A DNA stretch of 20,000 nt from positions 54,675 through 74,674 of the IMG/VR virus record IMGVR_UViG_3300030085_003924, one strand, 5' to 3'. Source of the DNA: an uncultured virus (IMG/VR IMGVR_UViG_3300030085_003924). Lineage: Duplodnaviria; Heunggongvirae; Uroviricota; Caudoviricetes. The notes beneath the pieces were generated by a model. The model searched no databases and was not told where the DNA came from. It was given only the letters and a program-made list of their open reading frames with translations. The position numbers and the translations under genes are program-made. Positions within the stretch are counted from its first letter, which is position 1; each line of letters opens with the position of its first letter. Positions 690 to 16,816 of the stretch are shown here, piece by piece.

Positions 690-1321
690 TGGGATTTTCT
701 TTAAAACATATTTTGTATTTTCATATGCCAAGGACTGCGGGTGATTCTATTAGAAAATCTATATCCAATTTCCCAAAGATGTGTAGAGTTACAACTCATC
801 ATAGTCAAGTTCACGCCATCAAAAATATAAAACAACATTCAACTTATTCACATCACAAATCATTTACATTTGTTCGTAACCCTTATAATAGACTTTATAG
901 TTCTTATAATTGGATTATGAACAGAGATACATCAAGAAATGAAGATTTGAGTGGAATTGATTTGTTGGAATATGATTATCTAAAGGGATTCAATGATTTC
1001 AACGATTTTGCCACTAATGTAGATGTGGATGGAATAAATAAAGAATTTATGATACACTTTCACCCTTGTAGTAAATGGATTTGGGATTCAAAACTTTTAA
1101 TTACAAATTTTTTCAAGTTCGAAGATTTATTCAGTAACGATGATTCATTCTTACATTGGTGCAAAGATAACGGACTTAATTATCAAGGACTTGTAGATGA
1201 AACACACAAATCTAAATGGACAGAAAGAAATTATTTTGATTATTTTAATTCTGAATCGATATTTAATATAAACAAGTTATATAAAAAAGACTTCGAACTT
1301 TTTGGTTATGAGAAAATATGA
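689..1321 (+). CDS. Sulfotransferase family 2 (PAPS-dependent carbohydrate sulfotransferase)
   Basis: 5'-PSB-like FHMPRTAGDS, 3'-PB-like FTFVRNPYNRLYSSY, C-terminal YKKDFELFGY; TAATG coupling to upstream gene. Confidence 0.88.
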   Translation: MGFSLKHILYFHMPRTAGDSIRKSISNFPKMCRVTTHHSQVHAIKNIKQHSTYSHHKSFTFVRNPYNRLYSSYNWIMNRDTSRNEDLSGIDLLEYDYLKGFNDFNDFATNVDVDGINKEFMIHFHPCSKWIWDSKLLITNFFKFEDLFSNDDSFLHWCKDNGLNYQGLVDETHKSKWTERNYFDYFNSESIFNINKLYKKDFELFGYEKI

Positions 1322-2139
1322 TAACAACAAGATTAAGACATACATTTACACCTAATCCCGAAACAAAGACACCAGACATAGGATTGGCTAATAGATTGTT
1401 TCAAATAGCAGCAGGTATTGGTTATGCAAAAAAATATAATGATAAGGTAGTTTTTCCTGATATCTTACATAAGAACTATGATATTCATAGGAATACTATA
1501 TTCAGAAATCTAAACTCTAATGGTGGTTCAAGAAATTTTATACAGAATACACATAGTTATACTGGTTATGGATACCAACCGATACCATTCAAACCAAATA
1601 TGGAACTTAATGGTTGGTTTCAATCTTGGAAATATTTTGAAGGTGCAGACAACGAAATAAGAGAAACATTTTCAATACCAACAGATATGATGGATTACTT
1701 AAATTCAAAGTATTCCGATATTCTAAGTAAAAAAACAGTTAGTGTTCATGTCAGACGAGGTATACAGGCAGCAGACGAAGCCGCATTAAGACAATATCCA
1801 CAGGCTGGAGCAGACTATATATCCGAGGCAGTAAAAATGTTTGATTCATCTTATACTTTTGTTTTATTTAGTGATGGTCATAATTGGTGTAGAGAAAATC
1901 TCAGAGATGATGTACCATTTGTTCATATTGAAAATGAAACAGAGATAGTTGATTTATATTTAATGTCACTAATGCATCATAACATTATTTACAATAGTAC
2001 ATTTAGTTGGTGGAGTGCTTGGTTGAACAAAAATCCAAATAAAAAAATAATCACTCCCAATACTTGGTACGGACCTGATAATCCATGGCCAAACCAACCT
2101 GATGAAGATTTGATACCAAATAATTGGATACGAATATAA
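1318..2139 (+). CDS. GT11-family glycosyltransferase (alpha-1,2-fucosyltransferase-like)
   Basis: GLANRLFQ, GWFQSWKYF, SVHVRRG, FSD..WC, DLYLMS..HNII.NSTFSWWSAWL, DLIPNNWIRI. Confidence 0.92.
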   Translation: MITTRLRHTFTPNPETKTPDIGLANRLFQIAAGIGYAKKYNDKVVFPDILHKNYDIHRNTIFRNLNSNGGSRNFIQNTHSYTGYGYQPIPFKPNMELNGWFQSWKYFEGADNEIRETFSIPTDMMDYLNSKYSDILSKKTVSVHVRRGIQAADEAALRQYPQAGADYISEAVKMFDSSYTFVLFSDGHNWCRENLRDDVPFVHIENETEIVDLYLMSLMHHNIIYNSTFSWWSAWLNKNPNKKIITPNTWYGPDNPWPNQPDEDLIPNNWIRI

Positions 2140-2819
2140 TGGAAAAAGATATAAATAAAGATTATTTCAAAGAAAAAATAACTAAAGAAAATCCAACAAT
2201 ATTCGATGTTGGAACTTTTGATGGAAGTGATTGTTTAGATTTTTATTATTTATTTTCAAATCCAACCATCTATGCATTTGAAGCTGATAAAAGGTCAGTT
2301 GATATTTTCAAAAAATATGTTGGTCATAGACCAATTAATTTGGTAGAAACTGCTCTTTCAAATGTAGATGGTGAAATTGAGTTCTATCAAAGTGAAAGTG
2401 AAACTCGTAGACACTCTCAAAGATATGATTACGAAAAGACTTGGAGTGCGTCAGGTTCAGTAAAGAAACCAGATAATCACCTTAGTGTATTTCCTGATAT
2501 ACAATTTGAATTAAATAAAGTTAAATCTACAAAATTAGATACTTGGATGTCAGATAAAGATATTGATTTAATTGATATAATGTGGGTGGATGTTAATGGT
2601 GGAGAAGAAGAATTTTTAAGTGGTGGAAAAAACACCATAAATAAAAAAGTTAATTATTTATATATAGAATTCAACGGAGTTGATGACCGAAAGTTATACA
2701 AAGATTGTTATACTGCAAATCAGATTAAAGACACATTACCTAATTTTGAAGAAATAGGTATCTATAATTTTATGGGAAATTTTGGTAATATATTATTGAA
2801 GAATAAAGGAGTAGGATAA
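2139..2819 (+). CDS. FkbM-family SAM-dependent methyltransferase (NoeI-like sugar O-methyltransferase)
   Basis: IFDVGTFDG, IYAFEAD, ALSNVDGEIEFY, KLDTW, IDIMWVDVNGGE, YLYIE. Start moved from 2124 to the ATG at 2139 that overlaps the upstream TAA. Confidence 0.88.
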   Translation: MEKDINKDYFKEKITKENPTIFDVGTFDGSDCLDFYYLFSNPTIYAFEADKRSVDIFKKYVGHRPINLVETALSNVDGEIEFYQSESETRRHSQRYDYEKTWSASGSVKKPDNHLSVFPDIQFELNKVKSTKLDTWMSDKDIDLIDIMWVDVNGGEEEFLSGGKNTINKKVNYLYIEFNGVDDRKLYKDCYTANQIKDTLPNFEEIGIYNFMGNFGNILLKNKGVG

Positions 2820-3580
2820 TGGGAAATTATCAAGGATTAAAGAAAGAAGAAACTCGTAATGAGTATGGTGAAGATATTCATTATACAAGTTGGCCAGTTG
2901 GGAAAATTCCTAAAGAATTTCAACGACCTGAACTTGACCAAGTAAGAGAATTGGGATATGATTGGGATGATCCACGAGATGTAGTGGATATGTTTGAGGA
3001 GAAGGTTGCTAAATTTGCTGGTAGTAAATACGCTTGTAGTATAGATTCATGTTCCAACGGATTATTTTTGGCAATGAAATATCTTAATGCCGAAGGAACG
3101 ATTACAATTCCTAAGAGAACCTATGTTTCACCACCAATGCAAATAATACATGCTGGATGTAAAGTAAAGTTTGAAGATAGAGAATGGAGTGGAGTTTATA
3201 AATTAGAACCATATAATATTTGGGATGGTGCTACGGCTTGGACGAAAGGAATGTATGTTGGAAACGATGCAATACAAGTTGTGTCTTTTCAAATAAAGAA
3301 AAGAATACCAATTGGTCGTGGTGGTATGATATTAACAGATAGTAAAGAGGCATTTGAATGGTTCAAATATGCTACATATGATGGTAGAAATCTTAGAGAA
3401 TATTATATGGATGATAAGTTTGCAATGATTGGTTGGCATATGTATATGACACCTGAAGATGCCGCCAGAGGTATAATATTGATGGATTCAGTTCCAGAGG
3501 TAAATGAGGATACAGGTGGTTCAACCACATATTCGGACTTATCAGATAGAGAAGTATTTAAAGATTACTTAGGAGAATAA
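2819..3580 (+). CDS. Short DegT/DnrJ/EryC1/StrS-family PLP-dependent aminotransferase (253 aa)
   Basis: FEEKVAKFAGSKYA..DSCSNGLFLA, WDGA (PLP Asp), SFQIKK (PLP Lys), GRGGMILTD, GWHMYM. Lacks the C-terminal domain of full-length members. Confidence 0.82.
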   Translation: MGNYQGLKKEETRNEYGEDIHYTSWPVGKIPKEFQRPELDQVRELGYDWDDPRDVVDMFEEKVAKFAGSKYACSIDSCSNGLFLAMKYLNAEGTITIPKRTYVSPPMQIIHAGCKVKFEDREWSGVYKLEPYNIWDGATAWTKGMYVGNDAIQVVSFQIKKRIPIGRGGMILTDSKEAFEWFKYATYDGRNLREYYMDDKFAMIGWHMYMTPEDAARGIILMDSVPEVNEDTGGSTTYSDLSDREVFKDYLGE

Positions 3581-4333
3581 ATGACACCTAAAATATCCAT
3601 AGTTACAGCAACACATCGTAGACCTGATTTATTGTACAAATGTATAAAGTCAGTTCAAACCTCAACCTTACAAGAATATGAACATATAATAGTAGGTGAC
3701 CATTGTGATTGGGCACAAAGAGTATGTGAGTTATTTTCAGATGATAAAAGAATAAAATATTTTGAAACACCACATCCTCATGTTTGGAATGCTGGTGCCA
3801 GTTCAAAAAATATTGGGATAGAAAAGGCACAAACTGATTACATTGTTTATTGTGATGATGATAATATAGTATTAGAAAATCATTTAGAGGTGATGTACAA
3901 TGAGATGTCGAAGGGAACTAAGTTGTGTGCGTCAAAATTATATGAAATCACATTGGATAATTGGGGAGATGGTTCAATAGAAACTCTCATGAACATACCA
4001 TTACCAAAGTTAAATGAATTACAGAATGGTCGGTCACATTATGGTGATATGCAATGTTATGGACACACGAAGTCATTATCGGATTGTGTGGGTGGATGGC
4101 AAACAGCCGAAGAAATACAACACGATAGTAGGTGGACAAAATCAGCAGTAAATGAAGATGGATATTTACTATGGAAATTCGATAGACTTATTAATGAGAA
4201 GCCTGTGTTTCTTGATTCCATAAGTGTTGTGTATTATGGTAGAGGTGCCTGTTCGAATAAAGACAATGAATACGAAAAATTATTAAATATTGATGAACTA
4301 TTTGTTTATCCAAACCTTACGGAGAAATTATGA
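3581..4333 (+). CDS. GT2-family glycosyltransferase
   Basis: KISIVTATHRRP, CIKSV, EHIIVGD, KNIGIEKA..DYIVYCDDDN, NED motif; AGGAG RBS. Confidence 0.88.
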   Translation: MTPKISIVTATHRRPDLLYKCIKSVQTSTLQEYEHIIVGDHCDWAQRVCELFSDDKRIKYFETPHPHVWNAGASSKNIGIEKAQTDYIVYCDDDNIVLENHLEVMYNEMSKGTKLCASKLYEITLDNWGDGSIETLMNIPLPKLNELQNGRSHYGDMQCYGHTKSLSDCVGGWQTAEEIQHDSRWTKSAVNEDGYLLWKFDRLINEKPVFLDSISVVYYGRGACSNKDNEYEKLLNIDELFVYPNLTEKL

Positions 4334-5316
4334 AGAAAAAAGCGTTTATAACAGGTATATCTGGTCAAGATGGTAGTTATCTTGCAGAATTACTATTGGA
4401 AAAAGATTATGAGGTCTATGGTATAATCCGTAGAAACTCCACACCCGAACACCAAGAAAGTAGAATTGACCACTTGGTTGGGAATGGAGTAGAAACAGAG
4501 TATGGTGATTTACTTGATGTAAGTTCATTAGAGAGAATGATACGAACAATACAACCTGATGAAATATACAACATAGCAGCACAAAGCCATGTTAGAATCA
4601 GTATGGATATTCCACAATTTACAGTTCAGGCTAACTGCCTTGGGTTATTGAATGTATTAGAGGCATATAAAAACAATTGTCCTACCGCAAGATTTTATCA
4701 AGCATCATCATCTGAGATGTTTGGTCGTTCAGTTGATGAGGATGGATATCAAAGAGAAACCACACCTATGCATCCTACAAGTCCTTATGGATGTACAAAA
4801 GTATTTGGATTCAATATGGTAGTTCATTACAGACACGCCTATAAATTATTTGCATCAAATGGTATTCTATTTAATCACGAATCACCAAGACGAGGTTCTA
4901 ATTTTGTAACCAACAAGGTTGTTAAATGTGCTGTTCAAATTAAACACGGATTACGAGACAAGTTACCACTTGGTAATTTAGAAGCATATCGTGATTGGGG
5001 ACATTCAAAAGATTATGTTAGAGCCATGCATATGATTATGAATCATACAGAACCAGATGACTTTGTATGTGCTACAGGTCAGAGTAGGTCGGTAGGAGAT
5101 ATGTGTGAGTATGTATTTTCAACTCTTGGATTAGATTACAAAGACTATGTAACTGAAGATCCAAGATTCATGAGAGCAGAAGAATTAAAATATCTTAGAG
5201 GTGACTCTACTAAACTCAGAGAAACCTTTGGATGGGAGCCAGAATATACATTTGAAACCTTGATGGATGAGATGATAGAACATTGGGAAAAAATATACGA
5301 TTTTGGGAATAAATAA
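4330..5316 (+). CDS. gmd: GDP-mannose 4,6-dehydratase
   Basis: ITGISGQDGSYLAELLLEK, PDEIYNIAAQSHV, FYQASSSEMFG, SPYGCTK, NGILFNHESPRRG, LGNLEAYRDWGH. Confidence 0.97.
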   Translation: MKKKAFITGISGQDGSYLAELLLEKDYEVYGIIRRNSTPEHQESRIDHLVGNGVETEYGDLLDVSSLERMIRTIQPDEIYNIAAQSHVRISMDIPQFTVQANCLGLLNVLEAYKNNCPTARFYQASSSEMFGRSVDEDGYQRETTPMHPTSPYGCTKVFGFNMVVHYRHAYKLFASNGILFNHESPRRGSNFVTNKVVKCAVQIKHGLRDKLPLGNLEAYRDWGHSKDYVRAMHMIMNHTEPDDFVCATGQSRSVGDMCEYVFSTLGLDYKDYVTEDPRFMRAEELKYLRGDSTKLRETFGWEPEYTFETLMDEMIEHWEKIYDFGNK

Positions 5317-5330
5317 GGATATATATTAAT

Positions 5331-6161
5331 ATGAAAGAAAAGGTTTTAGTAGTAGCTCCAACAACTGCAAGTAGATTACCATTATTAAAAGAGGTTTTAG
5401 GAAAATTATATGACAATACTAATTTAGACATTAAAACTATTGTTGTAAAGAATGGTACTTATTCAGATGAAGAATATCAGAATTTTGATTTTGGATTACC
5501 CAATATAATAAAAACCACTTCAGAACCTGGTGGACATATATCACATGCTATGAATGTTGGTATGGAATATATGACAGACGAGGATTGGTTTGTATATCAA
5601 GAAGATGATATAGTGTTTCAAAATGAAAAGTGGTTAGAAAATATGATTTCCATATACAAGACTATCGATAATTGTGGTGCCTTTGGAACAAGACTTCATG
5701 GACAACAAAGACAATTTACTAATACATCAGAGTCTTTGAAAAAGAAAGATGATGATACATTCGAGGTTTATTGGTCAGACGGGTTTACTTTAATTAGTGG
5801 TGATATAATTAGGAAACATAATTTAAGGTATGATGAACATATGATGACCGTTCCAAATGCATGTATTAACTTACAATTAATCGAATTGGGTTATGAAAAT
5901 TGGAGAACAGAGTTAGAATATGTCCATCATCACATTGGTGGAGATAGAACTGGTACACCCAAATGGAAACATGCTGATGTACCGATACATATGAAACGAG
6001 GTGATTGTCAGATTTACCTAAAGTATAATGGATGTGGTATTGAGAAAATACAAGATTGGGTTAATATGGATACTATTAAGGCCAGAGATTGGTTAATATC
6101 AAAAGGTAGAGATAAAGAAGATTATCAAACTTTTGAGTTGAATGAGGAGAACTATGTATAA
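5331..6161 (+). CDS. Divergent GT-A fold (GT2-like) glycosyltransferase
   Basis: N-terminal beta-alpha-beta start, IVVKNG, ISHAMNVGM, WFVYQEDDI (xDD), YDE, terminal VHHH; located in the glycan cluster. Confidence 0.7.
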   Translation: MKEKVLVVAPTTASRLPLLKEVLGKLYDNTNLDIKTIVVKNGTYSDEEYQNFDFGLPNIIKTTSEPGGHISHAMNVGMEYMTDEDWFVYQEDDIVFQNEKWLENMISIYKTIDNCGAFGTRLHGQQRQFTNTSESLKKKDDDTFEVYWSDGFTLISGDIIRKHNLRYDEHMMTVPNACINLQLIELGYENWRTELEYVHHHIGGDRTGTPKWKHADVPIHMKRGDCQIYLKYNGCGIEKIQDWVNMDTIKARDWLISKGRDKEDYQTFELNEENYV

Positions 6162-7324
6162 TGGATATTAGAGAAAAACCATTAAAGGTTTTAGGGCCAT
6201 TTGGAGACAAATCAGATATAGATTCTATTGGAGAAGTTATTGAAAGTGGATGGTGGGGAAAAGGACCTAAAGTTCAAGAGTTTGAAGAAAAATTTGCAGA
6301 ACTTGTTGGTGCAAAACATGCGATAGCAGTTACAAGTAATTCTCATGGTCAAGATTTGGTTATGAAAGCCATGGGATTTAAAGGTATTGATGTTATCAAT
6401 CCAACAATATCTTTCGTAGCAACGGCACAGATTCCATTGTGGAATGATTGTACTTCCAACATAGTAGATGTCGATTCTGTAAATCTTAACATAACGGCAG
6501 AAGAAGTAGAAAAGTGGAAGAAACCAAATTCAGAAGTTTGTATTGCTGTGAATATGGCTGGGATTCCAGCACCTATTGACGAGATTAGAAAAGTATTTGG
6601 TGGATATATTATTGAAGATTGTGCACATAGTTGTTATACAGAAGGTGCTGGTACAAAAGGTGATGTGGCAGTTTGGTCATTTCAGGCAGTGAAAACGATG
6701 CCGATTGGTGATGGTGGAATGATTACATTAGATGATGATGATTTGGCAAATAGAATCAGAGAAATGTTATGGTTTGGTGTTTCTTCAACTTGGAGTAGAG
6801 CAGCAGATTCGAGTGGTACTCGACCTGGTTACGCTTGGGATTATCAAGTAGATAAACTTGGGTATAAATACTATATGATTGATATTATAGCAGCTCTCGG
6901 TTTATCTCAGATGAAAAAACTACCTCAATTCTTGGATACTCGTAGACATATACAAAAAAGATATAATGATGAGTTACATCCAATAATCGAAAGACCAGCA
7001 TATTCTGATACGGTTCAGTACTATTGTGCTAGATTACCTATGAAGTTTGAAAATATGGCACCTGATGGAAGTGGATATAGCAGAAAAGTGTGTAGAGATG
7101 ACTTAATTAATTACTTGGCAGATAAGAAGATACATACATCAGTTCATTTTAAACCTTTACATCTGTATAATTTATTAAAGGATGATACCAAAAGATTACG
7201 AGTTGCAGAACAAGAGTGGGTGAAGTTAATAAGTTTACCTTGTCACAATGGAATGACAGACGAAGATATAGATTATGTAGTTTATTGGGTTAATAAATTT
7301 ATAGAGGAAGAATATGAAAAGTAG
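6161..7324 (+). CDS. DegT/DnrJ/EryC1/StrS-family NDP-sugar aminotransferase (full length)
   Basis: SGWWGKGPKVQEFEEKFA, IIEDCAHS, WSFQAVKTMPIGDGGMI, LGYKYYM.DI.AALG, IHTSVHF.PLH, ISLPCH. Confidence 0.95.
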   Translation: MDIREKPLKVLGPFGDKSDIDSIGEVIESGWWGKGPKVQEFEEKFAELVGAKHAIAVTSNSHGQDLVMKAMGFKGIDVINPTISFVATAQIPLWNDCTSNIVDVDSVNLNITAEEVEKWKKPNSEVCIAVNMAGIPAPIDEIRKVFGGYIIEDCAHSCYTEGAGTKGDVAVWSFQAVKTMPIGDGGMITLDDDDLANRIREMLWFGVSSTWSRAADSSGTRPGYAWDYQVDKLGYKYYMIDIIAALGLSQMKKLPQFLDTRRHIQKRYNDELHPIIERPAYSDTVQYYCARLPMKFENMAPDGSGYSRKVCRDDLINYLADKKIHTSVHFKPLHLYNLLKDDTKRLRVAEQEWVKLISLPCHNGMTDEDIDYVVYWVNKFIEEEYEK

Positions 7325-8012
7325 ACTCATATTAGGTGATGGTAGTTTAGGAACTGAATTAGTCAAACAAACTGGTTGGGATTATATTAGTAGAAAGAAA
7401 GATGGTATTGATTTTAAGGATATTAAAACATATCAAGGCTATATGTTTGGTTATGATGAGATAATTAATTGTATAGCATGTACTAATACTTATGACAAAT
7501 GGAAAGATGAAAATTGGAATACAAATTATAAGGGTGTAGTTGATTTAGTGGATTATCTTGATGGAACAGACACGAAGCTAATTCAGTTTTCTACCGATTA
7601 TGTTTATGCCCAATCAAAGACAAACGCCTCTGAAACAGATGTTCCTGTACACAATGGAAATTGGTATAGTTATACAAAGGTAATATCAGAACCATACATA
7701 GAATTGAGATTAGACGATTACTTAATAATAAGGTCAACTCACAAACCAAGACCTTTTATGTTCGAAAAGGGATTGATAAGTCAAATTGGTAACTTTGATT
7801 ATATTGATATTGTTTCAAAAATATATATTGATTTGATAGAAGGAGATGCAAAAGGTATTTATAATGTTGGAACTGAATTAAAAACTATGTATGAATTGGG
7901 TAAGAGAACTAAGGATGACATCGTACCCACTAATGAAAAATTTCACGATACCATGCCATTGGATGTGAGTATGAATTTAACTAAACTAAAGAAGTTTTAT
8001 GATAAAAAATAA
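7314..8012 (+). CDS. RmlD-like NDP-4-keto-sugar reductase (short SDR)
   Basis: LILGDGSLGTEL, IINCIACT, FSTDYVY, YSYTK (YxxxK), YLIIR, GIYNVG. Confidence 0.8.
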   Translation: MKSRLILGDGSLGTELVKQTGWDYISRKKDGIDFKDIKTYQGYMFGYDEIINCIACTNTYDKWKDENWNTNYKGVVDLVDYLDGTDTKLIQFSTDYVYAQSKTNASETDVPVHNGNWYSYTKVISEPYIELRLDDYLIIRSTHKPRPFMFEKGLISQIGNFDYIDIVSKIYIDLIEGDAKGIYNVGTELKTMYELGKRTKDDIVPTNEKFHDTMPLDVSMNLTKLKKFYDKK

Positions 8013-8700
8013 GAAAGTAGCATTTGTTGTAGCATTACATCAAAGTAAATTACATAGACCTAATGGATTTGAGCTGTTTAATAATTATATTGGTTCTGTA
8101 TATGATTCGTGTGAATATCCATTTAAAGTTTTTGCATTTGACAACCAATCCGACCATAAATTTGAAGTAGAAAACCAACCAGATAATTTGACCATAACAA
8201 GAGTTGATGACCAATACAAGGGTGGATGTACTTATACTTGGAATGAAGGAATTAAACAGGCAATTAAAGAAGATTTTGATGTAGTAATAATAACTTCAGA
8301 TGACCAAATTTATAATGAATCTGTAAACGATTTTGTAGATGTTATATTAACACACGAACTTAGAGACGATGCTATATTTGGCCCGATGTCAAATAATCCA
8401 AATAACAATTATCAATTATCTCATGAACCAATTGATGATGTGTGGGAGATTTCAGGAAAACCAGAAGATGAACTAAATGGATTCTGTTTGGCAATGACAC
8501 GAGAGTCTATTGAGAAGAATTACTTTGATGAGGATGGTAATTTTTTTAACACAGGACAAGAATTTATTTGGGGTAAACAGGATGTTGAAGTCCAGTCGAG
8601 AGTTGGGCATTCCATAGTGGTTGGAAAATGTTATGTTCATCATTATAAACAAGGTGGGTGGAGAGAGATACGAGATGGTTTGAGGATAGATGATGTCTAA
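7999..8700 (+). CDS. Divergent GT2-like glycosyltransferase
   Basis: FAFDNQS, TWNEGIKQA, VIITSDD, GPMSN, LNGFCLAM, YVHHYKQ. Confidence 0.75.
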   Translation: MIKNKKVAFVVALHQSKLHRPNGFELFNNYIGSVYDSCEYPFKVFAFDNQSDHKFEVENQPDNLTITRVDDQYKGGCTYTWNEGIKQAIKEDFDVVIITSDDQIYNESVNDFVDVILTHELRDDAIFGPMSNNPNNNYQLSHEPIDDVWEISGKPEDELNGFCLAMTRESIEKNYFDEDGNFFNTGQEFIWGKQDVEVQSRVGHSIVVGKCYVHHYKQGGWREIRDGLRIDDV

Positions 8701-9466
8701 AAATGTCGTGTTCATACCTAATATAGATTTAGGTGATGGTAGAAATAAATCCTATAAATACTCAATAGATAGTTGGAGTCATTTCGCTAAGAAGAACGAT
8801 TGTGAGTTATTGATTTGGGAAGATTTATTATTTCCCATAGAACAAATGAAGATAACTTGGCAACGATATTATATGTTTGATATTTTAGAGGCAAATAATA
8901 TTGATTATGACCAAATTTTAATAGTTGATGCTGATACAATAGTTCATCCTGATTGTCCTAATTTCTTTACAGAGACAAATGGTAAGTATAGTGTAGTTAG
9001 AAATAATGGTAGTTTTGAGTGGACGAGAAGGTCAATGGATGGATTCTCTAAATTATTATTTGATGGAGAAGTTCCATTTAAAGTGTGGGATTATTTCAAT
9101 TGTGGATTTCAGATTGTTAATAAAGAACACAAGGAGTTTTTTGAATATGTGAGAGATTATTATTTAGAAAACCAAAATAAGATACAAAACGCTATAGAAC
9201 AAGTTCGAGCTGGTACAGACCAAACACTAATCAATTTTTTAATTAGAGAACAGAATGTAGAATTAAATTATTTACCGATAGAATATAATTTACAGGATTT
9301 ACATTCAAAACAACTACTATTTCTTCATCCACAAATGTGGTTCGAAGATAAATTAATATTCGAAAATTGTGGTTATGTATTTCATTTTAATGCGATACCA
9401 CCAAATGATATGAATAGAGATGCAAGTTATTGGATTAAAAGAACATATGAGGAGTTTTACGGATGA
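8693..9466 (+). CDS. GT-A nucleotide-sugar transferase (GT8/GT34-like)
   Basis: SIDSW..FAKK, DYDQILIVDADTIVHPDCPNFF (DxD), YFNCGF, TDQTLINF, YN, VFHFN. Second ATG (8693) is better spaced from GAGGA than 8690. Confidence 0.82.
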   Translation: MSKNVVFIPNIDLGDGRNKSYKYSIDSWSHFAKKNDCELLIWEDLLFPIEQMKITWQRYYMFDILEANNIDYDQILIVDADTIVHPDCPNFFTETNGKYSVVRNNGSFEWTRRSMDGFSKLLFDGEVPFKVWDYFNCGFQIVNKEHKEFFEYVRDYYLENQNKIQNAIEQVRAGTDQTLINFLIREQNVELNYLPIEYNLQDLHSKQLLFLHPQMWFEDKLIFENCGYVFHFNAIPPNDMNRDASYWIKRTYEEFYG

Positions 9467-10386
9467 AAGTAGCATTCTTTTCAGAAACGGGTAGTAATCA
9501 AAAATATCCAAGAGACTTTCCAAATGCCCGTACAGAAGTGGGTTGGTGTTTGGCATTAGATGCCCCAATGTGTCATTTGAATCCATCCATAAAGGAGAGA
9601 TTAGAAAATTTCGATTTAGGGATAGTTATAATTCCTAAAAATAATCCTGAAAAGATTGATTGGGATTGGATAAGGAGTAAGTGTAAAAATGTTGCGGTAA
9701 TGCAAGAAGGCCCACATTGGTACTTTCAAGATTATACAATCGATAAACAATTTCATTATTATAATAGTTTACTTGAAGCAGATTGGGTATATTGTCATAA
9801 TACTTCAGATGTAAATTACTACAAAGGATTAGGATGTAAAGATGTTAGGGTGATGAGAAGTTTGATGATACCTGATGGATTAGTCCCAAGAAACGAGTGG
9901 GGAGATGTAACAATTATTGGTGGTAATTTTGTTAGTTGGTATGGTGGATTTGATTCCTATATGGTTGCAAGAGAGATAGGAGACCCGATAGTAGCACCAT
10001 CAATGGGTAGGAAACAAGATTTGGAAAATCAAATAGAAGATATTCAGTATTTACCATACATGAGTTGGAGAGATTGGATTAATAGTTTATCCCAATACAA
10101 TATAGGAATACATTTGATGAGAACACATGCAGCTGGTACATTCGCTATGAATTGTGGATTTCATGGAATACCATGTATTGGATACAAAGGATTGGACACA
10201 CAAGAATTAATATTTCCAAACACAACAATAGAGGTTGGTGATTTGGAAGGAGCACAAAAGATAGCAAAGAAACTCAAAACGGATGAAAAATTTTATGATG
10301 AGTGTAGTAAAGAAGCATTATATAGATTTAGTGAATATTACACAGAAGAAAAATGGTTAGAAAATTGGGAGAATACAAACAAATGA
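9463..10386 (+). CDS. Putative GT-B fold (GT4-like) glycosyltransferase
   Basis: C-terminal YLPYMSW..W...L....IGIHL....AGTF..NC...GIPCIG...D.QELIFP and terminal helix resemble the donor-binding domain of GT-B enzymes; cluster context. Confidence 0.65.
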   Translation: MKVAFFSETGSNQKYPRDFPNARTEVGWCLALDAPMCHLNPSIKERLENFDLGIVIIPKNNPEKIDWDWIRSKCKNVAVMQEGPHWYFQDYTIDKQFHYYNSLLEADWVYCHNTSDVNYYKGLGCKDVRVMRSLMIPDGLVPRNEWGDVTIIGGNFVSWYGGFDSYMVAREIGDPIVAPSMGRKQDLENQIEDIQYLPYMSWRDWINSLSQYNIGIHLMRTHAAGTFAMNCGFHGIPCIGYKGLDTQELIFPNTTIEVGDLEGAQKIAKKLKTDEKFYDECSKEALYRFSEYYTEEKWLENWENTNK

Positions 10387-12056
10387 AAATAGTCGGATTT
10401 CAATCTGGACACGATGTTTCATATTGTGTTTTAGAAGATGGTGTACCTATAATACACGAGGAGTTAGAGAGATTTACAAGAGAGAAAGAACCATATGGTG
10501 ATGGTTTAGAAATGTTCTTTAATATAGTCGAAGATGTTGATGAATATAAATACTTTTGTTACGGAAATCCTGGTAATAGAACTGGTAGGATACAGGCAGG
10601 TTCAATGAACACAAATCCTGAATCATCTAAAAAAATGAATGATTTAATTGAAAAAAATGATGGTCAGTTTTATATTATAAGTCATCATCAATCTCATGCA
10701 GCAAATGCATTCTTTTCGAGTAATCATGATGAGGCATTAATCATAACCATTGATGGTGCAGGAGTAGATAAAACTGATTGGGAAGATATTACAAGTGAAC
10801 GAGATGGAACTGATGAATTCTCATTCCCAACATCATTCACTTTTTGGATGGGTAAGGGTAACAAAATCAAACCTTTAGAACGAATACATATGTACGAAAT
10901 TACATTGGGTTCACCTTATAAAATATTCACAAGAGATTTATTTGGTTTATCTGGTGGTTATCCACACGGAAATCAGGCAGGAACGGTAATGGCAATGGCA
11001 TGTATGGGAGATTCTGATAAATATTGGAAGGAGTTTTACGATAGTTTGAAATTAGGTGGTGGTGGACCTTCTGCCTCTAATATGAACTTAGCAAAAAAAT
11101 ACAGAGAGTTGATTGAAAGTGAAGTAGATGAAAAGAAAAAAGAAACTTTAAAGTTTGATGTATCAGCTGGAATACAGAGAGCAGTAGAAACGATAGCGAA
11201 AGAATATATTACACCTTATGTGGATAAATACAATCCTAAAAATATTTGTATGGCTGGTGGTGTGGCATTAAATTCTGTAATCGTTGGTAAAATGTATGAT
11301 TGGTATCCTGATGTTAAAGATATATATGTATGTCCTGTACCATATGATGCAGGGTTGGGAATAGGTTCAGCACAATATGTATATCATCAAGTAATGGATA
11401 ATCCAAGAATTACTTGGAAGGATAATACATCACCTTATTTGGGTAGGACTTATGATTTAGAAGATATTCAAGAATCTTTAAATGAAGTTAAAGATAAAGT
11501 ATCCACAGAAGAAGTAGATGATGATGCTGTAGCTATGTTATTATCAGTAGATAATAATGTTATTTCAGTATTTGGTGGTGGTTCAGAATCAGGTCGTAGA
11601 GCATTAGGAAACAGAAGTATATTAGCAGATCCGAGAAGTCCTGATATGAAAGATATCATAAATGAAAAGGTAAAACACAGACAATGGTTTAGACCATTTG
11701 CTCCAAGTATTACACGAGAGGATGTAAAAGATTGGTTTGAGAAAGATGTAGATAGTCCTTACATGACCGCCGTAATAAAGTTCAAAGAGGAGATGAGAGA
11801 CAAAGTACCAGCTGTAGTTCATTTTGATGGTTCGGCTAGATTACAGACGGTAACAGAGAATGATAACGAATGGTATTACAACTTTATTAAAAAGTTTGAA
11901 TCTATGTCGGGTGTTCCTATTGTATTAAATACAAGTTTTAACGATAGGGAGCCGATTGTTGAAACACCAGAACACGCAATTAATTGTTTTTTACGGACAG
12001 ACATAGACTATTTATATTTTAGAGAGTATGGAATATTAGTGAGGAAAAATGGATAA
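10383..12056 (+). CDS. NodU/CmcH-family O-carbamoyltransferase
   Basis: GHDVS, EELERFTREK, HHQSHAANAF, DGAG, AGGVALN, DAGLGIG, ESGRRALGNRSILADP, VKHRQWFRPFAP, VHFDGSARLQTV, LNTSFN. Start moved from 10353 to the ATGA overlap at 10383. Confidence 0.96.
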   Translation: MKIVGFQSGHDVSYCVLEDGVPIIHEELERFTREKEPYGDGLEMFFNIVEDVDEYKYFCYGNPGNRTGRIQAGSMNTNPESSKKMNDLIEKNDGQFYIISHHQSHAANAFFSSNHDEALIITIDGAGVDKTDWEDITSERDGTDEFSFPTSFTFWMGKGNKIKPLERIHMYEITLGSPYKIFTRDLFGLSGGYPHGNQAGTVMAMACMGDSDKYWKEFYDSLKLGGGGPSASNMNLAKKYRELIESEVDEKKKETLKFDVSAGIQRAVETIAKEYITPYVDKYNPKNICMAGGVALNSVIVGKMYDWYPDVKDIYVCPVPYDAGLGIGSAQYVYHQVMDNPRITWKDNTSPYLGRTYDLEDIQESLNEVKDKVSTEEVDDDAVAMLLSVDNNVISVFGGGSESGRRALGNRSILADPRSPDMKDIINEKVKHRQWFRPFAPSITREDVKDWFEKDVDSPYMTAVIKFKEEMRDKVPAVVHFDGSARLQTVTENDNEWYYNFIKKFESMSGVPIVLNTSFNDREPIVETPEHAINCFLRTDIDYLYFREYGILVRKNG

Positions 12057-13269
12057 GGTAATAAGTTTTATACAACCAAGTAGAAACAATTTAAAATATT
12101 TAAAGTGGTCTTACAATAGTATAAGAAAACACTTAGGATACAGACATGAGATATGTATGTCTGATGATTTCTCGGATGATGGTACTTGGGAATGGATGAA
12201 CGAAATAGTTAAGAAAGACCCGAATGTACAGATACATAGAAATAACGGGCCTGAAAGATTAGGACATACAATTCTATATGATACATTAGTCGATATGGCT
12301 ACCAATGATATTGTGATGATTTATCACGCCGATATGTATGCTTGTCCTAACTTAGATACAGAGATACTTAAACATTTGGAACGAGGTAAGGTAGTAAGTG
12401 CAACACGGATAGAACCACCATTACATCCTGATGGGCCAGAAAAGGTTTTACAAGATTTTGGAATAGAACCTGAGGAGTTTGATGAAGAAGGATTATTGAA
12501 TTTTATAAATCAGACTTGGGAAGGAATGCCAGAAGATAAGATTACTAATGGAATATTTGCTCCGTGGGCGATATACAAAGATGACTTTACAAGTATTGGT
12601 GGACACGACCCGTTATATGCACCACAATCAAAAGAGGACTCGGATATATTCAACAGATTTAAATTGGCTGGTTATGAATTAATTCAGACTTGGGAAGGTT
12701 ATGTTTATCATATGACTTGTAGAGGTTCAAGATTTAAAGATGGGGCTCTTAGAAATCCAGCAGGTCAAGTATTTATGAAGGGTAGAGAATCATCGGAGTG
12801 GTTAGCACAAAACCTTAGAAGTACAAGAAACTTTATTCGTAAATGGGGACATATGGTAAAACACGATGAACTATTACATCCAATTATCCCACCAAAATAT
12901 GATGTAGGATTTGTGGTTAAGAATTGTGACAATAAAATGTTAAGAGAGTTAGAACCTTGGTGTTCGGATATGTATGGTGATTGGGTTGGACATAAAGGAT
13001 TTGGTGTGAATAAATACATTGAAGAAGAACAACCAAACACTCAGTTTGATTTGAGTAAGAAATTACACTCACTCTATACTGAACCTGATAATGATGTGGT
13101 TATTAGGTTTGATGCCAGTAAATTGAATCAAGATAACTTCCAAATAATAGTTAATTTATCAGAGATACTTCAACAAAGCGGTGAAGTCGGTGAGATGGAG
13201 TTAGAAATATTTGAATTTTTTATAAAATCACTTGATACTTATGAAAGAGAATTAATAAATGTTAAATAA
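12049..13269 (+). CDS. GT2-family glycosyltransferase with C-terminal extension
   Basis: ISFIQPSRNN, DDFSDDGT, HADM, IGGHDP, EDSDIFNR, VYH; about 120 extra residues after IIPPKYDVGF. Confidence 0.88.
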   Translation: MDKVISFIQPSRNNLKYLKWSYNSIRKHLGYRHEICMSDDFSDDGTWEWMNEIVKKDPNVQIHRNNGPERLGHTILYDTLVDMATNDIVMIYHADMYACPNLDTEILKHLERGKVVSATRIEPPLHPDGPEKVLQDFGIEPEEFDEEGLLNFINQTWEGMPEDKITNGIFAPWAIYKDDFTSIGGHDPLYAPQSKEDSDIFNRFKLAGYELIQTWEGYVYHMTCRGSRFKDGALRNPAGQVFMKGRESSEWLAQNLRSTRNFIRKWGHMVKHDELLHPIIPPKYDVGFVVKNCDNKMLRELEPWCSDMYGDWVGHKGFGVNKYIEEEQPNTQFDLSKKLHSLYTEPDNDVVIRFDASKLNQDNFQIIVNLSEILQQSGEVGEMELEIFEFFIKSLDTYERELINVK

Positions 13270-13705
13270 AAAAATCTGTATTTTTGGTCCACCATGTGTA
13301 GGTAAGACTACTTTAGCATATACGGCTTTAAAAAATAAAATACCTTCATTTACCACACATGATTATAATCCATCCATGTGGCAAAGTAATGAAGAATTTT
13401 TTACTCGTATACTTAATTTAGATATACCTTTATTTCTTGATGTTGGAGGAAAAAATATTGGTTGGATAGATGGTGGAGATGATATAAAAACAGTATTATT
13501 ATTACCACCAAGAGATGTTTATTTAGAACGAGAGAGAATGGATATTGAAAATATAGGAGAACATAGGAATCAAAGTGGTATACAACACTATGATGACTTA
13601 ATGGAATCAAAATCAGAATTTGATTTAGTTATTGAAGATGTCTTATCTCCACAAGAGATTTTTGATTATATTATTGAAACAATGGAACTTAAAAATGAAT
13701 TATAA
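13259..13705 (+). CDS. Small P-loop kinase (NMP/shikimate/gluconate-kinase-like fold), substrate unknown
   Basis: N-terminal ICIFGPPCVGKTTLA Walker A, LFLDVGG, R..R lid-like segment, DLVIE; 148 aa. Confidence 0.7.
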   Translation: MLNKKICIFGPPCVGKTTLAYTALKNKIPSFTTHDYNPSMWQSNEEFFTRILNLDIPLFLDVGGKNIGWIDGGDDIKTVLLLPPRDVYLERERMDIENIGEHRNQSGIQHYDDLMESKSEFDLVIEDVLSPQEIFDYIIETMELKNEL

Positions 13706-14201
13706 AGATTATATTATAGAAGTACAAGATTTTCCAATCGATGGTGTGAACTTTAAAGACCTTTCACCATTACTTGCCGACCAAGAGACATTTAGGTCTG
13801 CTCTCGTGGAAATGGGAAAGAGAGTCAGACTACCTGATTATTGGATTGGGATAGATTCTCGTGGATACATATTTGCATCAGGTTTAGCCACATATTTTGG
13901 TGGTGGTGTTGTATGTGCAAGGAAAGAAGGAAAGACACCAGGTGATAAGGTATCGGTTAGTTATGATTTAGAATATGGAAGTGCCACATTAGAGATGGGA
14001 AAACTCGGAATGGGTGGTGGAGAGGCCGTAATAGTGGACGATGTTCTCGCCACAGGTGGAACACTCAAGGCAACCAATGAGTTAGCAGAAAGGGCTGGAT
14101 ATAGTGTGGTTGGTAACTTGGTATTGGTTGATTTAAAATATGTACCGAGAGTTGATAATTTTAATTTAAATGTGAGGAGTGTAATAAAATATGAAGATTA
14201 G
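13695..14201 (+). CDS. apt: Adenine phosphoribosyltransferase
   Basis: DFPIDGVNFKDLSPLL, GIDSRGYIF, ARKEGKTPG, YDLEYGSATLE, VIVDDVLATGGT (PRPP loop). Start moved from 13632 to ATG at 13695. Confidence 0.95.
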   Translation: MNYKDYIIEVQDFPIDGVNFKDLSPLLADQETFRSALVEMGKRVRLPDYWIGIDSRGYIFASGLATYFGGGVVCARKEGKTPGDKVSVSYDLEYGSATLEMGKLGMGGGEAVIVDDVLATGGTLKATNELAERAGYSVVGNLVLVDLKYVPRVDNFNLNVRSVIKYED

Positions 14202-14673
14202 AGATATTACGATATTGTCATTAATAGTTTTGGCAGTATTAACAAGATTAATTCCACATCCACCAAATGTAGCACCAATAACAGCAATAGCACTATTCGG
14301 TGGAAGTAGGTTTGATGATAAGAAAATGGCATTTTTATTACCATTATTATGTATGTTTATTTCAGATATATTTTTGGGTTTTAGTGTCATAACACCATTT
14401 GTATATTTGTCATTTATGATGATTTCATATATTGGTATAAATTCAAAAAAAATTAGTAACGGAACAATACTTGGTAGTTCTACATTGTTCTTTTTACTTA
14501 CAAACTTTGGTGTTTGGATGTTGGGGTATCCTTTCACACTTGCTGGATTGGTTAGTTGCTATACTATGGCATTACCATTCTTTGTTAATACAATTATAGG
14601 TGATTTATTTTTCACCCATGCCCTTAGTTATAGTTTCTCTACAATAAAGAAAAAACTACCACAATTAACATAA
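14191..14673 (+). CDS. DUF6580-family membrane protein (ECF S-component-like putative vitamin transporter)
   Basis: About 5-6 hydrophobic segments; RLIPHPPNVAPITAIALFGG, PLLCMFISDIFLG, SSTLFFLLTNFGVW, YPFTLAGLVSCY.MALPFF.N...GDL. Confidence 0.85.
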   Translation: MKIRDITILSLIVLAVLTRLIPHPPNVAPITAIALFGGSRFDDKKMAFLLPLLCMFISDIFLGFSVITPFVYLSFMMISYIGINSKKISNGTILGSSTLFFLLTNFGVWMLGYPFTLAGLVSCYTMALPFFVNTIIGDLFFTHALSYSFSTIKKKLPQLT

Positions 14674-14689
14674 CAGAAAAGGAAACAAA

Positions 14690-15706
14690 ATGAATAAAAT
14701 GGTTATAACTCTAATAACATCGTTGTTATTAATAAGTGGTTGTAGTAATCCAACGGAATCTAATGAACCAGCTATAGTACAAGAATGGGTATTTGTAGCA
14801 AATGAGGGTAACTTTGGTGCCAGTAATGGTTCTATATCTATGATTAATCAAGACGGCATTGTTCTTGAGGTCACAGAAGTTGGAGATGTAGTTCAATCAT
14901 TAGAGGTATACGAAAACAAACTAATCGTGGTTGTAAACAATAGTCATATGATTAAGGTTTATGATATTACAGAAGATGGTTTAGCTTTACCAGGTATCGA
15001 AGTATCAACAGACAACTCAAGTCCAAGAGAACTCGTGGTGGTAGGAGATAAAGTATATTTTACTAATTGGAATACTAAAGATGTAAAGGTATTAAATCTA
15101 TTCAATTATAATATAGAAACTTCTATATCAGTTGATGGATTACCAGAATCAATAGTTTCAGATGGTTCGTATCTTTGGGTAGGAATTATGATGAATGAAG
15201 ATTATAGTTCAGCAAGTAGTGTAGTCAAGATTGATATGAATACTAATTCAGTAGTTGAAACATACGAGGTAGGATTGGGACCAACTTCATTGGAAGTAGA
15301 TGAGGATGAGGTTTATGTAGCAAGAACATTCTATGATGAGAATTGGATTCCATTTTATGGTTCAAGTAAAATAGATGGTTCTGGTATTACTATAAATAAT
15401 TATGGTGCAGGGGTGGCCTGTGGTGGTTCAGTAATGAAATATAATAATGAAATCTATCGTTCATTTGATGGTGGTATAGCAAAATTAGATTTTGAATTAA
15501 ATATAAATACAGCATCAAAGATAGGTTCATATGACCAATCTCAAGTATATTCTACTGAAGTAATCGGAGATTATATATATTTCGGTATTACCAATTATGT
15601 AGATGTGAACCAAGTAAGAGTAGTAGATTTTAATAATAATGAAATCTCTACATATGATGTTGGAATATCACCTGGAGATTTTGCGGTTTGGAAAAATAAT
15701 GAGTAA
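14690..15706 (+). CDS. BtuG-like (YncE/DUF5074-type) beta-propeller surface lipoprotein, putative cobalamin-binding
   Basis: Signal peptide with lipobox LISG-C; motifs NEGNF...N.S, GDVVQS, VVNNSH, SPR, G..PTSL and terminal VGISPGDF..WK are collinear with Bacteroides BtuG2 as recalled (NEGNF..SNA, GDVAQS, VVNNSH, SPR, QPTSL, VGIIPGAFCWK). Confidence 0.8.
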   Translation: MNKMVITLITSLLLISGCSNPTESNEPAIVQEWVFVANEGNFGASNGSISMINQDGIVLEVTEVGDVVQSLEVYENKLIVVVNNSHMIKVYDITEDGLALPGIEVSTDNSSPRELVVVGDKVYFTNWNTKDVKVLNLFNYNIETSISVDGLPESIVSDGSYLWVGIMMNEDYSSASSVVKIDMNTNSVVETYEVGLGPTSLEVDEDEVYVARTFYDENWIPFYGSSKIDGSGITINNYGAGVACGGSVMKYNNEIYRSFDGGIAKLDFELNINTASKIGSYDQSQVYSTEVIGDYIYFGITNYVDVNQVRVVDFNNNEISTYDVGISPGDFAVWKNNE

Positions 15707-16118
15707 AAGAAAAATGTGGAAAGATGCAGATAAATCACTTCTGAAATCTTTACCAAACTTAGATGGTGAAAATCCATACGAATTAAAAATGAAACAACCT
15801 GAATTAACATTCTTGGGTGTGTATGAACAACCTGATTTTGCCACATTGTATATTTTGATGCATCCTAATGGTAAAATAGTTGAGTTAAAATCGTTGAAGA
15901 TATACCTACAACAATATAGGGATATCATAATATCATATGAGAGATTGACAAATGTGATTTACGACCATATGATGGAAGTCTACTCACCACAGAGATTACG
16001 ACTTGTGTTGGATTGTATGCCACGAGGTGGTATCATGTCAAGAGTAACCATCGATTCTGATTGGGCTGTAAAGGGTGGAGAAGAAAAATACAATAGTTGG
16101 GGTGAAGATGTCTGGTAA
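15699..16118 (+). CDS. QueF-like T-fold protein (unimodular preQ0 reductase homolog) lacking the catalytic Cys
   Basis: PELT....QPDFAT, QueF motif VELKSLKIYL..YR, SYE, PRGGI. Start moved from 15639 to ATG at 15699. FLGVYEQPD replaces canonical SLCPxTGQPD. Confidence 0.85.
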   Translation: MSKRKMWKDADKSLLKSLPNLDGENPYELKMKQPELTFLGVYEQPDFATLYILMHPNGKIVELKSLKIYLQQYRDIIISYERLTNVIYDHMMEVYSPQRLRLVLDCMPRGGIMSRVTIDSDWAVKGGEEKYNSWGEDVW

Positions 16119-16816
16119 TGCTATCACAATCATTTTTAATACAACGAGGTTATTGTTGTGGACACGGATGTTTGATGTGTCCATACGAACCCAAACACAC
16201 AAAAGGAAATACTAAACTTATGGGTTATGGTAATGTAGAGAAAAAACCACTCATAGTTTGTGCACTCGAAGTTGAGACACAAGGACAATTGGATGACTAC
16301 GATGTATTATATACAGGAGTTGGTAAGGTTAATGCCACATTCAAACTTACACAGAAGTTTGGTAAACATGGTAGTTATATTCCATATGATATGGTAATCA
16401 ATTATGGAACTGCTGGTAGTAGAAAAATAAAGAAGAAACAATTAGTTGATTGTACGAAGTTTATTCAAAGAGATATGGATGTTACTGGTCTTGGATTCAT
16501 GAGAGGTGAAACACCATTTGAAGATAATCCACCAATAACAATAGAAACATCTAAGGATGTATTTAATCCTATTGGTAGGAGAGCAACTTGTGGTACAGGT
16601 GATAATTTTGCAGAGGATAAATCACAATACTATGGTGAGGTTGTTGATATGGAAGCCTACGGATTGGCAAAGGTATGTTATCACTATGATGTTCCATTTA
16701 TCTCATTCAAATATATTACAGATGGGGCTGATGAACAGGCTCACGAAGATTGGGAAGCAAATCTTGCCGATGGTATAGAAGTATTTAAGGAAAAAATATT
16801 AAAGGAATTGAAATGA
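16118..16816 (+). CDS. DUF5522-like Cys-rich domain fused to MTA/SAH nucleosidase (PNP/UDP superfamily)
   Basis: Residues 1-34: RGYCCGHGCLMCPYEPKH.KGNT. Remainder: VCALEVE, TGVGKVNA, INYGTAGS, TGDNF, VVDMEAYGLAKVC, FKYITDGAD. Confidence 0.85.
   Translation: MLSQSFLIQRGYCCGHGCLMCPYEPKHTKGNTKLMGYGNVEKKPLIVCALEVETQGQLDDYDVLYTGVGKVNATFKLTQKFGKHGSYIPYDMVINYGTAGSRKIKKKQLVDCTKFIQRDMDVTGLGFMRGETPFEDNPPITIETSKDVFNPIGRRATCGTGDNFAEDKSQYYGEVVDMEAYGLAKVCYHYDVPFISFKYITDGADEQAHEDWEANLADGIEVFKEKILKELK

Follow-up and report, generated by a model that had tools for sequence, protein, structure and literature searches.

The gene at 15699..16118 (+ strand) of the window, by which we mean the whole 20,000-nucleotide stretch of viral DNA analyzed here, encodes a 139-aa QueF-like T-fold protein that lacks the catalytic cysteine of QueF (assigned by PF14489, TIGR03139 and the predicted structure), and its product is likely an NADPH-dependent methylene-tetrahydrofolate (methylene-THF) reductase. 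Cys-less relatives were observed in methionine-cycle operons, mostly in MetF-less genomes, and the protein is therefore a likely maker of methyl-tetrahydrofolate (methyl-THF), a role for which its fold is not known. From this context and from the residues retained, we infer that the Cys-less QueF-fold protein is quite probably a flavin-free, NADPH-dependent 5,10-methylene-THF reductase replacing MetF, and that the phage likely carries the gene to sustain the regeneration of methionine and SAM while it infects its host.

A QueF-like protein lacking the catalytic cysteine

The window forms the end of a 74.7-kb virus record, which is itself a fragment, and the gene and its four window neighbors from 13632 to 16816 described below lie on the + strand. 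The 5' end of the gene overlaps the upstream gene by 8 nt and its stop shares one base with the ATG of the next gene. The protein matched PF14489 in Pfam, with no match to PF02219, and scored 89.4 bits against TIGR03139 (cut-off 86.9), with two relatives falling under the cut-off at 83.8 and 81.3. An AlphaFold model built from a 135-row alignment (pLDDT 90.5; an earlier model from 22 close sequences, pLDDT 52, was set aside) is consistent with a single T-fold, and its best fold match in Foldseek was unimodular QueF 4FGC/4F8B (TM 0.76, E 1e-10 for 4FGC). The ESM Atlas matches fell within QueF-named clusters only, and the profile match to QueF-L (5JYX) was weak (E 0.005).

FolE was the next fold and profile match after QueF, and a match to PHROG 5949 carries the label GTP cyclohydrolase. 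These matches, and the handling of pterins by T-fold relatives, would fit a dihydrofolate or dihydropterin reductase, or a substitute for GTP cyclohydrolase I, that supplies folate rather than methyl groups. However, DHFR was present in all five of the MetF-less carriers tested, and folate-synthesis genes were absent among the recurrent neighbors of the Cys-less gene. The zinc site of GTP cyclohydrolase IA (FolE) consists of two Cys and one His, and this conserved set is absent from the Cys-less protein, in which the one Cys is not conserved. We regard a role in folate supply as highly improbable.

The open reading frame contains the motifs PELTFLGVYEQPDFA, ELKSLKIYL, SYE and DCMPRGG, as given in the preliminary description. 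Alignment to 4F8B/4FGC agreed with its claim that a Gly replaces the QueF Cys in a shortened loop: Gly40 (GGT, 15816-15818) within Phe38-Leu39-Gly40 (15810..15818) was placed on Cys55 of B. subtilis QueF, with the loop before QPD shorter by one residue. The same alignment confirmed that the QPD Asp, the ExKSLKxYL-type motif, the SYE Glu and PRGG are kept. Asp46 (15834..15836), the proposed general acid, corresponds to QueF Asp62, and within ELKSLKIYL (15882..15908) Glu62 corresponds to Glu78 and Lys64 to V. cholerae Lys96. Measured against the QueF motif E(S/L)K(S/A)hK(L/Y)(Y/F/W), the window sequence ELKSLKIY has Ile at the L/Y place, a position held by Leu in 67 of 121 close homologs, with E, K, S, K and Y conserved. 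The segment Ser79-Tyr80-Glu81-Arg82 (15933..15944) retains the ring-binding Glu, replaces Phe95 with Ser and introduces a new conserved Arg. The stacking residues Phe33/Phe95 and His96 of QueF are absent, their places being taken by Leu18, Ser79 and Tyr80.

The preliminary description had asked whether the closest homologs or reads have Cys at this position, and none did: Gly occupied the Cys column in 120 of the 121 close homologs and Cys in 0 of 121. Among 157 distinct sequence contexts of the fetched loci, this Gly was encoded by GGA (61), GGT (53), GGG (23) and GGC (20). Contigs from two other studies spanned the GGT codon unchanged, one with 0 differences (X5 record 13) and the other with 1 difference, at 15544 (X6 record 21). 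The view of the gene as intact was likewise supported, as dN/dS was about 0.03-0.05 with no decay (0.012/0.371 against the gene of L001 and 0.015/0.336 against that of L002). A chance or sequencing slip is excluded because Gly is found in nearly all homologs, all four Gly codons are used, the contigs of the two other studies agree and dN/dS is low, and a sequencing error or pseudogene was ruled out on the same evidence. Parts of the gene were also covered at low depth by contigs of three metatranscriptomes, which does not in itself establish transcription.

Distribution and conservation of the Cys-less family

The family was collected as 283 close proteins, two sets of viral stretches (39 and 231, with 80 of the 231 kept) and 50 GTDB loci, and distant Cys-less members were taken from a 50% library. 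One locus (L003) was a false match and was left out of the counts, while four others (L059, L069, L039, L090) were counted by tblastn. The Cys-less clade is widespread, with members present in phages, Bacteroidota, Gammaproteobacteria, Marinimicrobia and one archaeon. The Cys-less sequences formed one side of a branch with an SH-aLRT of 97 in a quick IQ-TREE tree (131 rows, 140 columns, midpoint root; the Cys-less rows P0156 and P0171 carry a wrong label). Gly was conserved in 91 of 91 Cys-less rows, and the suggestion that LG...QPD marks a conserved clade was thus borne out; the canonical rows had Cys at the Cys55 column in 37 of 37.

Residues common to the Cys-less proteins and canonical QueF included Glu35, Thr37, Pro45-Asp46 (Asp46 in 91/91 Cys-less and 37/37 canonical rows), Glu62, Lys64, Ser65, Lys67, Tyr69, Arg74, Glu81 (91/91 Cys-less rows) and Arg109-Gly110. 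Specific to the Cys-less rows were Phe38 (90/91), Gly40, Ser79 (91/91, for Phe95) and Arg82 (88/91). Judged by sequence, the parts that bind the ring and NADPH are intact and the pocket around them has been remodeled. The sole Cys of the window protein, Cys106 (16014..16016), was invariant among the 121 closest homologs, and the DCMP Cys had been put forward as one that might reach the active site. Across the wider family this position proved variable: of 91 members, no more than 43 have Cys, whereas 29 have Phe, 10 Thr and 6 Leu. Cys106 is therefore no substitute for Cys55, and we ruled it out as a relocated nucleophile and do not consider it catalytic.

Several other features of the family were observed. 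One 304-aa protein (P0158) has two modules, the first resembling the Cys-less proteins (SYE and RGG, with no Cys or Asp) and the second a canonical Cys-bearing QueF. Two giant-virus bins (GVMAG; L241, L242) carry the Cys-less gene, which in L241 adjoins an indoleamine dioxygenase. Among 50,697 isolate phage records no close relative was found (17 matches, at most 38% identity). No description of a Cys-less QueF-like family was found in the openly accessible literature; the accessible text of PMC13522567 and PMC13759103 does not describe it, and the term 'QueF' is absent from the main text of GapMind 2026.

Genomic context of the window gene

The contig encodes replication genes of T4-like type (family B polymerase, sliding clamp and clamp loader) and is rich in glycosyltransferases. 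SAM-using enzymes were numerous, including two DNA methylases, other methyltransferases, a SET protein, radical-SAM proteins and an AdoMet decarboxylase. Sequence of this contig was found in marine and estuarine metagenomes. A long island at window positions 18-13269, containing glycosyltransferases, NDP-sugar enzymes, aminotransferases, a carbamoyltransferase and a sulfotransferase, suggests heavy glycosylation by the phage.

The upstream edge of the cassette is an adenine phosphoribosyltransferase-like (APRT) gene (13632..14201, PF00156), found in the same place in L001-L010. It is followed by a DUF6580 membrane protein (14191..14673, PF20221, E 7.5e-48) and a lipoprotein-like beta-propeller (14690..15706, weak YncE/DUF5074 matches), which together occupy the slot of metK in L001/L002. 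Directly 3' of the Cys-less gene lies an MTA/SAH nucleosidase with an N-terminal DUF5522 (16118..16816, PF01048 and PF17653, with TIGR01705 under the cut-off). The DUF5522 segment, short, Cys-rich and fused to the nucleosidase (16118-16225), was missing from one contig, which skips 16110-16226. DUF6580, the beta-propeller and the Cys-less gene (14153-16116) constitute an accessory block, and contigs in at least three runs join the APRT end directly to the nucleosidase, skipping approximately 1.9 kb. In marine Bacteroidota (L042-L057) DUF6580 was also observed between the Cys-less gene and metH; no matching paper on DUF6580 was found in the literature. The region 14191-15706 and an earlier part of the contig (G000:C1:16-2544) may form a phage-borne cobalamin or folate uptake set, composed of DUF6580, the lipoprotein beta-propeller and a TonB-dependent receptor with a weak BtuB match.

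Methyl-cycle genes adjacent to the Cys-less gene

Near-identical phage genes (96-98%) were observed in the order APRT-metK-gene-nucleosidase. A metK, ahcY, metH, metE or nucleosidase gene lay within 2.5 kb in 25 of the 50 genome loci and in 23 of the 39 first-set viral loci, many of which are near-duplicates. The corresponding number in the second viral set was 11 of 62, and most viral copies lacked such neighbors. A 273-kb phage record (L217) carried metK, the Cys-less gene, a full-length B12-dependent metH and ahcY contiguously (L217:4968-11256), with MetF absent from the whole record; this cassette is three known methyl-cycle steps plus the Cys-less gene. In the phage-like loci L014-L016 and L041 the Cys-less gene was directly upstream of a full-length metE, which is folate-dependent and cobalamin-independent. 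L041 was assigned to a Marinimicrobia MAG, and its upstream metK is broken. Further phages had the Cys-less gene before ahcY, or between metK and ahcY.

Cellular genomes showed similar arrangements. The order in marine Bacteroidota was ahcY-metK-gene-DUF6580-metH, and in relatives of G030 the Cys-less gene was located between the halves of a split metH, 4-7 nt after the first half. In Pleionea (Pleionea mediterranea, L088) the gene is divergent from metH, and in two Marinimicrobia (L079, L085) it follows a stand-alone pterin-binding domain. The archaeon G040 has the Cys-less gene preceding metH, a slot held by metF in four of the five metF loci read from the same order. SAM riboswitches were found in 4 of 10 loci scanned and in none of 8 others, the window included. 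A SAM-I riboswitch leads the operon in L151-L153, in which the Cys-less gene lies between metH halves, and a SAM-I/IV riboswitch precedes the metK-gene-DUF6580-metH operon of L048. Neither the window nor the loci of seven relatives contained SAM, preQ1 or cobalamin riboswitches (Rfam).

Occurrence of MetF in genomes carrying the Cys-less gene

MetF was scored as PF02219 alone, and each lineage sample contained its seed carrier (requested completeness 85, 85 and 90%). With the three taxon samples pooled, MetF was present in 14 of 69 carriers compared to 407 of 438 non-carriers. Within the family of G030, which we take to be Crocinitomicaceae, 4 of 27 carriers had MetF, compared with 115 of 124 non-carriers, and among genomes with the MetH homocysteine domain the corresponding numbers were 4/26 and 112/113. 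Within the family of G048 (presumably Kangiellaceae) they were 8/29, one of these weak, and 19/26; seven genomes with neither gene also lacked the MetH domain, and MetE was absent in the five of these tested. For the order of G038, assumed to be Chitinophagales, MetF was found in 2/13 carriers and 273/288 non-carriers. Fisher values for the three samples were 4e-16, 1e-3 and 1e-11, and they overstate independence because the genomes are kin. A fourth sample, the Poseidoniales order of G040, was nearly uninformative, with one carrier, nine genomes with MetF and 111 of 121 with neither.

Of the first 50 carriers, 46 had the MetH homocysteine domain and 9 had MetF; carrier genomes thus include ones with methyl-THF-dependent methionine synthase and no MetF. 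Four of the MetF-less carriers (G054, G115, G131, G220) are single-contig genomes. MetF was never found among the neighbors of the Cys-less gene in the loci examined, and MttB was not found in any of the five MetF-less carriers tested. Some marine carriers have a second homocysteine methyltransferase, which is a possible folate-free route. Five Chitinophaga isolates among the first 50 carriers keep MetF, and there the Cys-less gene stands alone. Points against a replacement of MetF include the 14 carriers that keep both genes, the lack of methyl-cycle neighbors in most viral copies, and the contig itself, which has no methionine synthase (metH and metE, like metK and ahcY, are absent), although this contig is a 75-kb fragment.

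These observations also bear on an alternative in which the protein is a methyl-cycle helper that carries out either no reduction or a different one. It could be a folate- or pterin-binding accessory of methionine synthase, with methyl-THF arriving via another route, and could act in delivery, in the repair of oxidised folates or as a regulator binding SAM-, SAH- or adenine-like ligands. The coexistence with MetF in some carriers would fit such a protein, as would the tight linkage to metH halves and to the stand-alone pterin-binding domain, and the linkage to metK, ahcY and nucleosidase in phages without metH. However, a helper leaves unexplained why MetF specifically is missing in carriers and present in nearly all non-carriers, why the gene is linked to both MetH and the unrelated MetE, and why the NADPH motif and the Asp are conserved. 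We consider a helper unlikely.

Relationship to queuosine and 7-deazaguanine pathways

The preliminary description connected the gene to 7-deazaguanine DNA modification, which our analysis did not support. Pfam matches to folE, queD, queE, dpdA and tgt numbered 0 in the 68 ORFs of the first 54 kb of the contig and in the 28 other window ORFs, and none were found among the neighbors of the viral relatives (0 que or dpd genes among 111 representative neighbor proteins of the second viral set). One contig gene (G000:C1:29618-30790) joins a GNAT acetyltransferase to a domain that is in part QueC-like. This fusion C-terminus (Pfam E 6e-6 over 49 residues, PHROG 1550, no NCBIfam QueC) was the sole trace of a 7-deazaguanine cluster on the contig, and we rejected the presence of one.

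We also considered that the protein still acts on preQ0, whether by reducing the nitrile slowly without a Cys, by soaking up preQ0 as a sponge or by poisoning host QueF. In favor of this, none of the ring-binding acids has been lost, the NADPH motif is present, and the score is just above the TIGR03139 cut-off. In the accessible text of PMC13740343, E. coli C190A/C190S are reported to form preQ1 (section 6), and Cys mutants are described as still binding preQ0 but losing activity completely (section 7). That text is inconsistent on the Cys mutants, so slow Cys-free nitrile reduction is possible in vitro. The genomic evidence stands against such a role. In addition to the absence of que and dpd neighbors, QueC over the cut-off was absent in three of the five carriers examined (G054, G115, G131), and carriers that make preQ0 have a second, Cys-bearing QueF of one or two modules, often beside queC. 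Among five large phage records, QueC and QueD were observed together in one, which has its own separate 306-aa two-module QueF, and TGT was found in none of the five. SAM riboswitch control is also at odds with a preQ0 protein. The sponge and poison proposals in particular were not supported, given three SAM-riboswitch metH-operon carriers without QueC over the cut-off, and G054, which has no other QueF. We give a preQ0 role very little credence, and conclude that the Cys-less protein is not the queuosine enzyme of its hosts.

The N-terminal module of a split bimodular QueF was a further candidate. According to the accessible text of 10.1101/2023.04.13.536721, this module carries the NADPH site but no catalytic residues and needs a Cys-bearing partner. 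The candidate was ruled out, as Asp46 and Glu81 are kept and G054 has no other QueF-family gene.

Overall, the interpretation in the preliminary description was partly supported. It was right about the intact gene and the clade, and its suggestion of a pterin-like ligand with different chemistry is probably correct. It had missed the methyl-cycle context and the near-exclusion with MetF, and its proposals of DNA modification, a rescuing Cys, and a sponge or poison were not supported.

Proposed mechanism of methylene-THF reduction

In QueF, as described in the accessible text of PMC13740343, Glu97 binds N1/N2 of the ring, the His96 backbone binds O6 and Glu78 binds N9. Cys55 is the nucleophile toward the C7-nitrile carbon and Asp62 the proton donor to the nitrile nitrogen. 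NADPH supplies both of the hydrides that this one carbon receives, the second of which goes to a free imine; in V. cholerae QueF, Lys96 contacts the 2'-phosphate of NADPH. According to the accessible text of PMC11094777, MTHFR, Mfr and Mer all open the ring by acid catalysis to give a 5-iminium, which then accepts a hydride. In Mfr and Mer an acidic residue generates the 5-iminium, and the hydride reaches it directly, without a flavin.

By chemical reasoning, purine N1, C6=O, C7 and N9 would map to pterin N3, C4=O, N5 and N8. The tetrahydropterin ring may bind like the preQ0 ring, with Glu81 on N3/2-NH2 and Glu62 on N8-H. From this ring mapping it follows that the carbon on N5 would replace the nitrile carbon, and the N5-C11 methylene of 5,10-methylene-THF would be placed at the site of the preQ0 C7-nitrile carbon, with N10 at the site of the nitrile nitrogen. 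Asp46 would protonate N10 and the ring would open to the 5-iminium cation. NADPH, presumably bound by the kept motif, would then give one hydride as in the last imine-to-amine step of QueF, and the product would be 5-methyl-THF for MetH or MetE. Cys would be dispensable because an iminium needs no covalent activation. The change of Cys to Gly40, the short loop and the replacement of Phe95 by Ser79 may make room for the p-aminobenzoyl-glutamate arm, and Phe38 and Arg82 are candidate contacts of the benzoyl ring and the glutamate carboxylate. The phage would benefit from methyl-THF made available to a methionine synthase of the host or of its own, and hence from SAM for phage methylases, with the nucleosidase and APRT expected to clear SAH/MTA and recycle adenine.

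A four-electron variant, in which 5,10-methenyl-THF (or 5-formyl-THF) is reduced twice at one carbon to 5-methyl-THF, makes the same genomic predictions and finds a precedent in the two hydrides that QueF gives to one carbon (PMC13740343, accessible text). QueF holds its intermediate between hydrides by the Cys, however, and methylene-THF should be available because FolD was present in all five of the MetF-less carriers tested. We judge this variant very unlikely, and prefer the single reduction of methylene-THF.

Comparison with known systems and implications

The Cys-less protein shares its T-fold with unimodular QueF (YkvM of B. subtilis, preQ0 reductase, EC 1.7.1.13; 4F8B, 4FGC, TIGR03139), at 33-35% identity, and keeps the counterparts of Asp62, Glu78 and Glu97, the QueF/NADPH motif and RGG. 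It differs in the replacement of Cys55 by Gly, the loop shorter by one, and the changes of Phe95 to Ser, His96 to Tyr, Phe33 to Leu/Ile and Cys99 to Leu. The new Phe38 and Arg82, a C-terminal DSDW extension, its placement in a separate clade and a methyl-cycle rather than que context also set it apart. QueF-L archaeosine synthase (5JYX) and the phage QueF of 7-deazaguanine DNA modification share the T-fold and ring-binding Glu; QueF-L has the thioimide Cys and no NADPH-dependent reduction, whereas the Cys-less protein has no such Cys and does have the NADPH motif. Phage QueFs described in the accessible text of 10.1101/2023.04.13.536721 are ordinary reductases that keep the characteristic residues and complement queF.

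MetF, the FAD-dependent MTHFR (PF02219), has in common with the Cys-less protein the proposed reaction, the pathway place, the operon slot before metH or metE and SAM-riboswitch control, but it is a TIM barrel with FAD and a ping-pong mechanism (PMC11094777, accessible text), whereas the Cys-less protein is an unrelated T-fold with no PF02219. Mfr (mycobacterial MSMEG_6596, Rv2172c) and F420-dependent Mer are alike in the proposed flavin-free hydride transfer to a 5-iminium. As far as the same text describes them, both are (beta/alpha)8 barrels, and Mfr is NADH-using, monomeric and known from Actinobacteria, while the Cys-less protein is a 139-aa T-fold that is probably oligomeric. The Cys-less protein is thus predicted to function like MetF and Mfr while having the fold of neither, and although related to QueF it lacks the Cys that defines QueF.

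We find it reasonably likely that a T-fold class of methylene-THF reductase, derived from a tRNA-modification nitrile reductase by loss of the catalytic Cys, has repeatedly displaced MetF in Bacteroidota, Gammaproteobacteria, Marinimicrobia and one archaeon. In the same proposal the class has been spread by large phages, some with a four-gene methyl cycle, and giant-virus bins, and many 'queF' auxiliary genes of viromes are this enzyme. The characterised methylene-tetrahydropterin reductases MTHFR, Mfr and Mer are all (beta/alpha)8 barrels according to the accessible text of PMC11094777. If our reading is true, a core one-carbon step would have been invented independently in a flavin-free T-fold protein of 139 residues, and this enzyme would make up for the missing MetF of many environmental genomes with methionine synthase. 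It would also show how a nitrile reductase can move to another class of substrate, which the accessible text of PMC13740343 names as a bottleneck in the engineering of QueF. For annotation, because the Cys-less window protein passes the NCBIfam QueF cut-off, viral 'queF' genes read as queuosine or DNA modification may instead represent SAM supply.
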